Made by a program: the position numbers and the translations under genes. The notes under the pieces are model-generated. The model did no database searches. It saw only the letters and a list, made by a program, of their open reading frames with translations, and was not told where the DNA came from. This document shows, in pieces, positions 1 through 59,271 of a stretch of DNA of 64,000 nt (its first letter is position 1; every line of letters begins with the position of its first letter). The stretch is from assembly GCF_057098645.1 (NCBI RefSeq), contig NZ_CM169472.1; one strand, given 5' to 3'.

Positions 1-149
1 AGCAAGCTATACCATTTAGTGGTAAAACCCTGCCAGTTGATGCCAAAGCGCGAGCTGTTAAAGGAGTTCACAATCAAAATAATGATTGGGATATACAGGT
101 ACGCGTAGATAGCGGTCATAAAACCGCCGCGAAGCAGTCGACCGATCAT
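1..149 (-). CDS. potC: PotC spermidine/putrescine ABC permease, N-terminal 49 codons (gene continues left of window)
   Basis: Reverse strand from ATG 149-147 reads MIGRLLRGGFMTAIYAYLYIPIIILIVNSFNSSRFGINWQGFTTKWYSL, recognised as the PotC N-terminus. ATGA overlap with a potB-type stop. Confidence 0.9.
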   Translation of the reverse strand, partial: MIGRLLRGGFMTAIYAYLYIPIIILIVNSFNSSRFGINWQGFTTKWYSL

Positions 150-170
150 TCGAGTTCCACCTTCTTATTC
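146..170 (-). other. Displaced ancestral 3' end of potB (..NKKVELE stop) left at attL
   Basis: Reverse strand reads AAT AAG AAG GTG GAA CTC GAA TGA, the potB end as I recall it from K-12. It is now separated from the potB body at 58408-59271. Confidence 0.8.
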
Positions 171-171
171 A
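160..171. repeat. attL core (CCTTCTTATTCA)
   Basis: Identical 12-mer at 58428-58439. Flanks diverge on both sides. The integrase gene lies about 145 bp inside. Confidence 0.75.
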
Positions 172-218
172 TAAGGCGGGACACTTTCAGGATTTTGAAT
201 TTATTCAATTTTTTCCTT

Positions 219-251
219 TCTCCAAAATCTCTCCAAAACGTTTCCCCAAAA
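219..251 (+). promoter_or_regulatory. Three direct TCTCCAAAA / TCCCCAAAA repeats, candidate integrase arm-type sites (P' arm)
   Basis: Copies at 219-227, 230-238 and 243-251, between the att core and int. A further TTCTCCAAAA lies at 58299-58308 near attR. Confidence 0.4.
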
Positions 252-314
252 CTAGGCCACGCATTTTACAACACTTTTTCCTGAGATGGTGACGGATATT
301 CCATATGGTGTTTG

Positions 315-56290: not shown

Positions 56291-56346
56291 GCTTGCAGTC
56301 AGGTGTTTCGGGTCTGTGGCTTTTTGTGTTCTCTGGTAAGTGGTTG

Positions 56347-56622
56347 CTATTCTTTTATGTTGTGTATCTCTGTTTCTATAGTTTTAGATAGCCATGTCAT
56401 CTCAGTAACTGAGAGTTTTAGTTTTGGGGTTCTTTCTCCTGCGCCGGGTGGGCGCATGTCAAAACTACAGGCTTTTTTTTGGTACACTGTATAGCTATCT
56501 ACATTACATGTTGTTGATGTAAGTATGCAGTTCTTTGACGCTGGCTTGTCTTTTATGGGACCGGATATTTCCGGGTAATGTACTTGTGAACTTGAAAATC
56601 TGTTTTTGATTGAAAATGGCAT
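56347..56622 (-). CDS. espO: Small putative T3SS effector (EspO/OspE-family by context)
   Basis: 91-aa ORF directly downstream of espK. I recall espO1-1 adjacent to espK in O157 Sakai. Sequence identity not verifiable here. Confidence 0.5.
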   Translation of the reverse strand: MPFSIKNRFSSSQVHYPEISGPIKDKPASKNCILTSTTCNVDSYTVYQKKACSFDMRPPGAGERTPKLKLSVTEMTWLSKTIETEIHNIKE

Positions 56623-56682
56623 TGTTTTCTCCTTTGCTCCATGAAAAGTGTTTTTATGCTATTCCGTTATAAGTTGGTATCA

Positions 56683-58044
56683 TTAAGAATATTTATATGT
56701 GGAACCAGAGTATTTTGGACGATAGTCTTTCCATTCTGGTGTATCTAATATTCTTTCTGCTGGTATCTCTTTGCCATGTAGATAAAATTTTATGTTTTTC
56801 ATTATTTGGTTGTTGTCTTTATTACGGTAAATCCATCGTAATTCGCTGGCGGTAATACTCTGGCCATAGCCCTCTGACTTGTTAGCTATGAGTTTGAGTG
56901 AGTTGACAAGCTCATCCGCACAAAAAATAACCGTTTTATTGCGTGTTAATGTCTGAAACTCTAGGCCGGCCTTGCTTGTTTTTGCCCATAATTTGTCGCG
57001 ATTGTATACGGAAAGGTCGGCCATGGTAACATTATAATTATTGTGATTCTTTAAGTGTTGTTTAAATTTTATCCCTCTTTCGTGTTCATTTAATGCTCTT
57101 TTGATAAGTGGATCTTGCTTATATTTGCGAGGTGTTCTGGGGTCCCATACTGCGTTTGTTAACGTATTCTGAGTTATAATATCTTTTTTGGAAAAGTCGT
57201 TAACTAGTTTAATGCTGTTGACAAGTTTTTCTCTGGGTGAAGATAGTCCATAGACAATGTCTCCCTCGCGAAAGTGTAAGGCCACATCCAGAGCGTTGCC
57301 CTGAAAGGTGATGTTTTTTGCTTTAACTACATCTGGAGAGAGTAGTACATTTTGTAAATCAAGATCCAGCCCATCAGGCATCCCTTCAACACCGATGTTC
57401 CACGTGGTTTTCTGCTCCGCATGAATGGTTACCGATGTCACACTCTCCGGAAGTTTCTCCGGCAGTATAATATTGCTACATCCAGTCAGCGATAGCGTCT
57501 TCAGTGACGGTGATATCAGGTTGTCAATTCTGGCCTGATTCTCCGGGTTATAGCTATTGATGCTGAGAGATGATAACCCGTTTGGAACATTTTTTATGCT
57601 GTCTGTGGCGCTACCTTTTATTTCAAGGTAGCGGACACTCTCTGGCACTCCAGATATATAGCAGTGGCAAACCGTCAGGCACTCGATGCCTTCAGATATG
57701 AAATGTATAAATGGTGAATCAGTTAATTCAATATGTAGATTTTTTACGGTTGATGGCATGTCTGTGATTTGTAATTTTTCACAGTTAATGACGGAGAGGT
57801 TTTGTGTATTAACCGGCAATCCTGTAAGGGTTGTCAGGTTGTTGCAGTTTTCGATTGTAACTGATGTTATTTCGTTTGGTAACTGTGGCAGATACTCAAT
57901 ATCACAATCTTTGATATATAAACGACCACTGGCCCGCGCTTCTTCTATCTGAATTGGTGTGATTTCGCTTTTGATGTCTGCTGATGTTTCAGCGGAATAG
58001 GAGCAGAATGTCCCGGTCGGTCGTAATTGCGATGTAGGAAGCAT
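56683..58044 (-). CDS. espK: T3SS effector EspK (GogB-like, N-terminal leucine-rich repeats)
   Basis: 453 aa. MLPTSQLRP.. then LRR-like units (LPQLPNEITSVTIENCNNLTTLTGLPVNTQNLSVINCEKL..). Low GC. Adjacent to attR. Confidence 0.75.
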   Translation of the reverse strand: MLPTSQLRPTGTFCSYSAETSADIKSEITPIQIEEARASGRLYIKDCDIEYLPQLPNEITSVTIENCNNLTTLTGLPVNTQNLSVINCEKLQITDMPSTVKNLHIELTDSPFIHFISEGIECLTVCHCYISGVPESVRYLEIKGSATDSIKNVPNGLSSLSINSYNPENQARIDNLISPSLKTLSLTGCSNIILPEKLPESVTSVTIHAEQKTTWNIGVEGMPDGLDLDLQNVLLSPDVVKAKNITFQGNALDVALHFREGDIVYGLSSPREKLVNSIKLVNDFSKKDIITQNTLTNAVWDPRTPRKYKQDPLIKRALNEHERGIKFKQHLKNHNNYNVTMADLSVYNRDKLWAKTSKAGLEFQTLTRNKTVIFCADELVNSLKLIANKSEGYGQSITASELRWIYRNKDNNQIMKNIKFYLHGKEIPAERILDTPEWKDYRPKYSGSTYKYS

Positions 58045-58407
58045 TGATAAATTCCATTTTTAGAAATAAATAACAGAGTAAGTTCTATCCATACTACTAA
58101 TCAACAAGCTAATTTTAACAACCAGCAAAGCCAAGGTGTCAATATTAGAAAAGAGAGTTATATCTCAAAACCAACAGACTGTTGATTTTAACTTTTGCGA
58201 ATACTTTCTCCAGTCCGTCATGCATGGATTAGGATTGCTCATTTTTATACCATTTGTTGTTTTTTTATAGCGATTTGCTAAAAGGGAGAAGAAAAAACGT
58301 TCTCCAAAATTAGATTGCAACTGTTTGATTTTATGGATAGAGGCATGCTGTTTACTAGACAGTAAAAAGCATGCCAAATTTCCTATTAACATTTTGAATA
58401 TAAAGCA

Positions 58408-59271
58408 CTAATTATCTATTTCTGTTGCCTTCTTATTCAGCAGACGAGAAGCGCGCCAGTAAACCAGCAACATCAGGCCCATTACGATAGTCAGCGTAAT
58501 GCTGGTGGCTGCACCAAACGGCCAGTCACGAATATTAAGGAACTGGACCTTGATGACGTTACCGATCAGCAGGTTTTTCGCACCGCCCATCAGGTCGGAC
58601 ACATAGAACAGGCCCATCGCTGGCAGCATCACCAGCAGACATCCGGCAATAATCCCCGGCATCGTCAGTGGAATAATGATACGGATAAAAGTCTGTAACT
58701 TGCTGGCACCGAGATCGCGCGCCGCCTCAAGCAACGGCTTATCCAGTTTTTCGATACTGGAGTACAGCGGCATCACCATAAACGGCAGCAGAATGTAAAC
58801 CAGACCGATAATCACCGCACTGGGCGTGAACATGATACGGATTGGTGTGTCGATAACGCCCAGCCAGAGCAAAAACTCGTTGAGGTAGCCTTTGGTGCTG
58901 AGGAAAATTTTCAGCCCGTAGATGCGAATCAGTGAGTTGGTCCAGAAGGGAACAATCAGCAGAAACAGCAGCAGCGGACGCACCTTGTGTGGCAGCTTCG
59001 CCAGAAACCAGGCAAACGGATAGCCCAGCACCAGGCAGGCGAGGGTGGCGATCAGCGCCATATTCAGCGAGTGCAATAGCACTTCAAAATAGAGCGGATC
59101 GAGCAGACGTGTGTAGTTATCCAGCGTAAAGACCATTTTGACGAAACTGGCGTCGTCGCGGGTCAAAAAGCTGGTGCCAATGATCATCAGGTTGGGCAGA
59201 AAGACAAACAACACAAGCCAACCGACAATAGTGACAATCACTACATTCTGGAACTTACTTGTGTTCTTCAT
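58408..59271 (-). CDS. potB: PotB spermidine/putrescine ABC permease with a phage-derived C-terminal tail
   Basis: [24 protein letters not shown]... matches PotB through ..RASRLLNKK, then ends ATEIDN instead of VELE. Confidence 0.95.
58428..58439. repeat. attR core (CCTTCTTATTCA)
   Basis: Identical to 160-171. Lies inside the last codons of the resident potB ORF. Confidence 0.75.

Follow-up and report, generated by a model that had tools for sequence, protein, structure and literature searches.

A CP-933N-type prophage in the last codons of potB and the divided potABCD operon of Escherichia coli

Phage lambda integrates intergenically, between gal and bio, and its attachment (att) region consists of a core, an arm on the int side that holds three arm-type sites, and, past the core, the sib/tI hairpin. 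The elements e14 and phage 21 insert in icd and supply a substitute gene end. CP-933N, a prophage carrying the effector gene espK, has been known since the genome of E. coli EDL933 was sequenced. The literature also holds several prophages at potB: this gene is a prophage locus in O145:H28 (PMC7067040), a prophage termed PP_potB is present in O157:H7 clade 8 (PMC9997748), and phi-CFT073-potB is inserted in potB of uropathogenic E. coli CFT073 (PMC4632033, where the substitute end found in the Rac/ttcA case is also treated). CP-933N is a recognised espK carrier (PMC3133550). This report concerns a prophage of this type that interrupts the polyamine transport operon potABCD inside potB, in a 64-kb stretch of DNA (contig NZ_CM169472.1 of assembly GCF_057098645.1; termed the window).

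The element is a new mosaic copy of the known CP-933N/PP_potB prophage at a known and common site, and the insertion itself is not new. Its body is lambdoid and occupies 58,256 bp (positions 172..58427). What is added here is the occupancy of the site (~30% of the genomes searched), a conserved phage-encoded tail of PotB, and a narrowing by RNA sequencing (RNA-seq) of the region where transcription of potC and potD begins. Taken as a whole, the explanation that a CP-933N-type lambdoid prophage entered potB by lambda-style integration and split the operon into potAB' and potCD units (potB' being the rewritten gene) is considered very probable.

The potB integration site

The 12-mer CCTTCTTATTCA is present in exactly two copies in the window, at positions 160-171 and 58428-58439, both on the plus strand. 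Shuffled sequences give an expectation of 0.01 chance matches, and none of 100 shuffles contained two copies. Identity between the copies ends at the core edges on both sides of both copies, and it does not extend one base further. The copy at 160..171 is attL and the copy at 58428..58439 is attR.

When window positions 1-171 are joined to 58440 onward, an uninterrupted potB-potC junction results, in which PotB ends ...NKKVELE* and its stop codon overlaps the potC ATG. Over 338 nt this rebuilt junction matches NZ_CP083585.1 with 100% identity, and the two genes are annotated there as potB and potC. The comparison set consisted of 5426 complete E. coli genomes, and the rebuilt empty site is contiguous in 3800 of these. 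In K-12 strains and other empty-site genomes the match to the attR junction starts exactly at 58428, the first base of the 12-mer; the breakpoint on the other side lies at the attL copy, and the core 12-mer is single-copy in the unoccupied site.

A first-pass annotation of this DNA, made from its letters only, had proposed that a prophage splits potABCD inside the last potB codons and leaves a 12-bp att core at these two positions, and it had given VELE as the native PotB end of K-12. The genome comparison agrees with each of these: breakpoints fall exactly at the 12-mer, identical copies stand at both junctions and one in the empty site, and prophage-free genomes end ...VELE. The comparisons that the annotation had suggested as possible refutations were run, and they gave neither a native PotB end of ..ATEIDN, nor junctions at other positions, nor an empty site lacking the 12-mer.

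The copies share only 12 bp, and the attL copy of EDL933 has one mismatch, as might be expected if the repeat were a chance match or a target-site duplication of the transposition type rather than an att core. This reading retains almost no probability. The chance expectation is the 0.01 given above, empty sites have a single copy of the 12-mer, and thousands of genomes have their breakpoints at this very sequence. In addition, a lambda-type integrase (Int), an excisionase (Xis) and arm-type repeats are found at the junction, and diverged integrases use the same site in other genera.

The EDL933 attL core is CCTTTTTATTCA. Its one mismatch is seen both against the EDL933 attR core and against the window, and Pantoea shares the base at that position. 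It may mark the place of strand exchange; otherwise it is a mutation acquired after integration. A contiguous attP of a free phage was not found among 50,697 phage records; the matches there are prophage-derived, i.e. they include host potC/potD or end at att.

The int gene together with the attL arm is found in 1634 of the genomes (1623 at ≥80% coverage), as a single copy and with at least 94% identity. Among the carriers are EDL933, TW14359 and strains of O26, O111, O121, O145 and ST69. In 1612 genomes the attR junction is found together with ~34 nt from the phage. Empty sites and attR junctions together account for 5412 of the 5426, provided that no genome is counted in both sets. The collection is skewed toward pathogens, and the ~30% occupancy is a figure for the database and not for the species.

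On the left side of the prophage the first 49 codons of potC are present (positions 1..148, minus strand; translation MIGRLLRGGFMTAIYAYLYIPIIILIVNSF...), and the rest of potC together with potD lies to the left of the window. The ATG at 148-146 opens MIGRLLRGGFMTAIYAYLY..., which is PotC, and matching O145:H28 and EDL933 records show potC followed by potD. Between potC and the core is the orphaned native 3′ end of potB, ..V-E-L-E-stop (146..159, minus strand), whose TGA overlaps the potC ATG. This remnant is identical to the uninterrupted potB-potC of NZ_CP083585.1, and together with the core it retains the ribosome-binding stretch of potC, AAGAAGGTGG.

On the right side are the chimeric potB (58408..59271, minus strand; 287 aa, the native protein having 285 aa) and potA (59255..60391, minus strand). 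A promoter-like site, TTGGCG-17-TAGAAT, is located upstream of potA (60465..60493, minus strand) and is a consensus match only. The distance from the potC start (148) to the potA start (60391) is 60.2 kb.

Attachment arms and the rewritten end of PotB

The integrase gene is located just inside attL and is transcribed toward potC, as the first-pass annotation had placed it (positions 315..1433, minus strand). It is intact and encodes a 372 aa protein of the lambda type, with the Pfam domains Arm-DNA-bind_1 (PF09003, 75.4 bits, residues 1-64) and Phage_integrase (PF00589, 65.9 bits, residues 194-363). The catalytic residues R-K-H-R-H-Y can be placed by eye, by reference to the lambda Int motifs, in the segments TGQRRDD, QGKTG, HEQRSLS, LLGHK and TDRY of the translation. 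The excisionase gene is at 1402..1680 (minus strand). Its Pfam Exc score of 23.0 bits is exactly at the cutoff of 23, and an excisionase is annotated in all matching RefSeq records.

The phage P' arm, between the core and int, encompasses positions 172..314. It displays three direct repeats of the arm type, TCYCCAAAAY, at 219-228, 230-239 and 243-252 (recognised as sequence repeats), and a palindrome, TTGAATAAATTCAA, at 195-208. The P arm at the other end of the prophage has a single repeat of this type, TCTCCAAAA, at 58301..58309. It also has a 15-bp inverted repeat at 58342..58375, about 30 nt past the new potB stop on the minus strand, that can form a hairpin. The repeat is 93% complementary, its centroid structure has an energy of -21.8 kcal/mol, and no run of T follows it. 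The hairpin is kept in strain SCU-106, which belongs to another class of lysogens. By analogy it is probably the counterpart of the lambda sib/tI element.

Integrases that are 68-77% identical to that of the window adjoin potC in Citrobacter sp. Cu233, C. pasteurii and Candidatus Pantoea alvi, and in these Citrobacter and Pantoea relatives the arm-type repeats next to potC and their spacing are the same. The presence of diverged integrases at the same potC-adjacent site in other genera indicates that the module and its target are older than E. coli. In Citrobacter meridianamericanus the integrase stop is set apart from the potB-end/potC-start motif by ~800 bp of additional DNA that the other genera lack, and this may be an insertion into the P' arm.

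The phage-encoded end of potB is at 58408..58427 (minus strand) and reads ..A-T-E-I-D-N-stop, the first base of the Ala codon coming from the core. The four native residues VELE are thus exchanged for six phage-encoded residues, ATEIDN. The open reading frame in the window ends ...NKK followed by six phage codons and a stop, and the C-terminus of PotB is rewritten as had been proposed.

Four variants of this tail are found among lysogens: ATEIDN (the window, O145 and EDL933), ATEIDD, VSELDD and VSEIDD. All consist of six codons and a stop, and the differences among them are conservative (A/V, T/S, I/L, N/D) or synonymous. In the versions that begin with VS, identity with attB reaches 14 bp. 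VSELDD can be written as VELE with one residue inserted and one added. Both VSELDD and ATEIDN resemble VELE in their pattern of hydrophobic and acidic residues, in a segment that is too short for statistics. These likenesses suggest that the core-proximal phage arm may be a degenerate copy of the potB end, constrained either as coding sequence or as a core-binding site for Int.

The PotB of PDB entry 8y5f has 285 aa and aligns with the PotB of the window through residue 281, the last residue before the exchange. Chain 8y5g_B covers residues 7-279, which is the only hint that the PotB tail is not resolved there, and the paper on the PotD-PotABC structure says nothing about the C-terminus of PotB. 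The PGAP/RefSeq annotation treats the chimeric potB as intact in the lysogen records that were inspected. The chimeric PotB would be expected still to work, because the exchange affects only residues after the final membrane helix and because ~30% of the searched genomes carry the arrangement.

Transcription of the two parts of the operon

The first-pass annotation had offered two sources for potC expression, i.e. read-through from the int/xis region or a promoter near attL. The case for read-through, following phage early or pI-type transcription, can be made from gene arrangement. Both int and xis are co-oriented with potC, and the interval from int to potC gave no terminator-like site. Transcripts of int in lambda are ended by an element on the far side of the core. 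With this layout, int transcripts of a prophage would run into the host flank.

Published expression data argue otherwise. Landstorfer 2014 (PMC4048457) gives strand-specific values, as read counts per kilobase and per million mapped reads (RPKM), for EDL933 in eleven conditions, with an average background of 0.14 RPKM. In the order LB, pH9, pH4, 15 °C, nitrite, antibiotics, solid, minimal, spinach, radish and feces, potC (Z1763) shows 18, 5, 11, 13, 14, 16, 6, 8, 19, 8 and 0, and potD (Z1762) shows 46, 6, 2, 30, 14, 14, 18, 13, 23, 14 and 1. The values for potB (Z1830) are 11, 9, 5, 11, 8, 4, 2, 11, 23, 6 and 3, and those for potA (Z1831) are 5, 2, 1, 8, 2, 3, 9, 5, 19, 4 and 5. The int (Z1764) and xis (Z1765) genes show 0 in all 11 conditions (PMC4048457). 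They have a background probability of 1 in every condition and are among the 144 always-silent genes of Additional file 2 of that study, whereas potC and potD exceed the background in 10-11 conditions (PMC4048457).

The zeros of int are not a mapping artefact, since int is single-copy in EDL933, and the neighbouring phage gene Z1766 does yield reads (PMC4048457). The attL region of EDL933 is almost identical to that of the window, with 2 nt differences over positions 100-420. Transcription of potC and potD at least as strong as that of potA and potB, with int and xis undetected, weighs against read-through and in favour of a start between the end of int and potC. Read-through is therefore considered quite improbable. 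Of the two sources that had been offered, the promoter near attL is the one favoured by the same data, and the start site of potCD appears to lie within window positions 149-314. In short, public RNA-seq shows that potCD stay on while int and xis are off.

At the other junction, espK (Z1829) shows 0 RPKM in all eleven EDL933 conditions and potB shows 2-23 (PMC4048457). Both genes are on one strand, and espK lies 363 nt downstream from the stop of the chimeric potB. With espK silent and potB expressed at this distance, the potAB' transcripts presumably end at an efficient terminator in the P arm, for which the hairpin at 58342-58375 is the candidate.

Candidate promoters can be found in the P' arm on the minus strand: a -35 TTGGAG (225-220) with a -10 TAAATT (203-198), a -35 TTGAAT (208-203) with a TG-extended -10 AAGTGT (186-181), and a conserved -10 TAAAAT (268-263). 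Two other elements were considered and rejected. One is a small open reading frame at attL, ATG AAT AAG AAG GTG GAA CTC GAA TGA (phage A plus the TG of the core), that ends on the potC ATG and might have served as a translation coupler; its ATG is CTG in the attL of Citrobacter and Pantoea, where the arm is otherwise conserved, and it has no obvious ribosome-binding site. The other is a TTGACA overlapping the int stop (~316-311), which has no usable -10 and lies in a segment that is deleted in other genera.

Several points weigh against a separate potCD unit and a functional chimeric transporter. The candidates in the P' arm score 7-8.6 on a weight matrix, as compared to 6.1 +/- 2.7 in random 170-nt windows, i.e. 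within one standard deviation. With scores this near to random, sequence alone does not identify the promoter, and a consensus promoter scan of 1-1800 gave no matches. Conservation of the candidates in Citrobacter and Pantoea is equally explained by conservation of binding sites for Int and IHF. No potC transcription start site was found in the published data accessible to the analysis. The RNA-seq is from EDL933 and not from the strain of the window, and the expression levels are low. Strictly, transcription of potC might also begin within int, at its very 3′ end.

Other data sets add little. In the Cappable-seq tables of EDL933 start sites (PMC10469882), the rows covered give one condition-specific start assigned to potB and none close to potC. 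The relevant genes were not found in the supplements of a RIBOseq study (PMC5331693) and of a ground-beef study (PMC5543532). PMC7649339 gives fold changes of potA-D in an O145:H28 strain that are uninformative about promoters. A mention of potCB in PMC2147009 was set aside; it concerns lambda lysogens of K-12 and is irrelevant to the potB site.

The insertion might instead inactivate the transporter. In that case potCD or the chimeric PotB would be non-functional, the cell would use other polyamine routes, and the RNA signal would be of no consequence. The supply of polyamines in E. coli is redundant (PotFGHI, PuuP/PlaP and biosynthesis). Transcripts of potA-potB and of potC-potD are no longer coupled and their levels are low (2-46 RPKM), and the overlap of the potB stop with the potC start is lost, and with it translational coupling of potC to potB. 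Inactivation is nevertheless thought unlikely. The frame stays open for exactly six codons in all four tails, with conservative or synonymous differences, and both the ribosome-binding stretch and the ATG of potC are preserved in attL. Moreover, potA, potB and potC are annotated as intact in every lysogen record inspected, and in EDL933 potC and potD are transcribed no less strongly than potA and potB.

Active lysogeny, i.e. a phage regulatory switch of the comK type, was also considered and rejected. The potB frame is kept and potCD is transcribed; in addition, int and xis are silent in the eleven EDL933 conditions and the copy in the window has lost most of the antiterminator gene Q.

The sequence of events that is preferred, a lambda-style integration that leaves two operon parts, can be outlined as follows. 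The 58.3-kb prophage would integrate by a tyrosine-recombinase exchange between the 12-bp core of attP and the identical 12 bp in potB, at the codons ..L-N-K-K-, four codons before the end of the gene. The P arm lets the potB frame run on through six phage codons (ATEIDN) to a stop, and attL keeps the native tail remnant of potB, the ribosome-binding stretch and the ATG of potC. Transcripts of potA-potB' would end at the P-arm hairpin before espK. The potC and potD genes would form a separate unit transcribed from a weak start in 149-314, with neither the potA promoter nor int/xis read-through taking part. The prophage, probably defective, would persist with nleL, espN and espK as its effector cargo.

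A further proposal is more tentative, with perhaps slightly less to be said for it than against it: the att arms may be built to repair the operon that the phage cuts. The P arm would act as a mimic of the PotB tail combined with a terminator, and the P' arm as an outward promoter overlapping with the arm sites of Int. About one third of sequenced E. coli strains would then express potAB' and potCD under separate control, and the potA promoter would no longer govern potCD.

Prophage content and comparison with known systems

From attL the gene order of the prophage is int, excisionase, a RecE-like exonuclease, a repressor/cro pair, replication and lysis genes, followed by terminase, a protease-capsid fusion, portal, tail genes, gpJ, lom and tail fibres. 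Three genes for effectors of the type III secretion system (T3SS) are located toward attR. The first, nleL (espX7; 47698..50046, plus strand), encodes an E3 ubiquitin ligase, as indicated by the Pfam domains SopA and SopA_C, pentapeptide repeats and matching records. The second, espN (50637..54038, plus strand), matches Pfam DUF4765 over its full length and is annotated as espN. The third, espK (56683..58044, minus strand), is the last phage gene before attR and is present as WP_000938118.1 in O145 and EDL933.

The interval between espN and espK has remnants of IS2/IS3-type transposases (IS, insertion sequence) at 54581-55486 and in the surroundings (54195-56500). It also has small fragments that are annotated elsewhere as gogB and nleB remnants, and O145 strains have one more IS copy there (1.3 kb).

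Two further IS elements are located in the left part of the prophage. An IS21-family element (7624-10258; istA at 7741-9387, istB at 9161-10159) is inserted between the cro-like gene and the ydaT/replication genes and is absent from RM12761, the closest O145:H28 relative. An IS3-family element (15125-16434) replaces ~2.65 kb that is present in RM12761; the lost segment includes a DUF968 gene, rusA and the larger part of Q, the late antiterminator gene. Because of these two insertions, one of which replaces most of Q, this copy of the prophage is probably defective, with its late genes not switched on.

A P22-type antirepressor gene with Bro-N and P22_AR_C domains (39214-40092, plus strand) is found inside the tail-gene block; the equivalent in EDL933 is accompanied by Arc-family repressor genes, and the arrangement resembles an immI-like module at an unusual location. 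At 28417-31163 (plus strand) a 454-aa open reading frame with a complete portal domain is followed by an overlapping 461-aa open reading frame without a clear family. RefSeq treats the equivalent stretch of EDL933 as one “frameshifted portal protein”, an annotation that may be an artefact.

Outside the prophage, a second integrase gene (63286-64000, plus strand) starts just after roxA/ycfD and continues past the window edge. It has the Pfam domains Arm-DNA-bind_3 and Phage_int_M and belongs to a separate integrated element; in the same neighbourhood EDL933 has the “integrase of prophage CP-933C” (Z1835). With this element on one side and the potB prophage on the other, the potA-pepT-roxA block is flanked by mobile elements on both sides.

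CP-933N of EDL933 has the same integration point in potB and the same ATEIDN tail, and the gene order at its attL is potD-potC-int-xis. Its int and attL arm show 99.0% nucleotide identity to the window, and the right-hand 13.8 kb (nleL-espN-espK-potB-potA) is 99.8% identical. The two prophages differ in their early, replication and morphogenesis modules, which are mosaic, with only scattered segments matching EDL933. In contrast to CP-933N, the copy in the window keeps gpJ and the tail-fibre genes, and it has its own IS21-family and IS3-family insertions. The potB prophage of O145:H28 RM12761 is the nearest relative overall; its coverage is 84% over the first 25 kb. The prophage phi-CFT073-potB is not known to carry T3SS effectors, and its cargo and modules are presumably different.

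The integration module shares with lambda an arm-binding N-terminal domain joined to a tyrosine-recombinase domain, a xis gene upstream of int and a short identical core. The att arms, judged from their repeats, also appear to follow lambda, with three arm-type repeats on the int-proximal side, at least one in the other arm and a hairpin beyond the core like sib/tI. The differences are a core of 12 bp as compared to 15 bp in lambda, a different core sequence, and a target that is inside a gene and not intergenic.

Insertion in a coding region, with phage codons ending the target open reading frame, is shared with e14 and phage 21 in icd and with Rac in ttcA. Unlike these, the potB prophage replaces only four residues by six, and the gene that it enters is an internal one in an operon; potC and potD, downstream, are thereby separated from their promoter.

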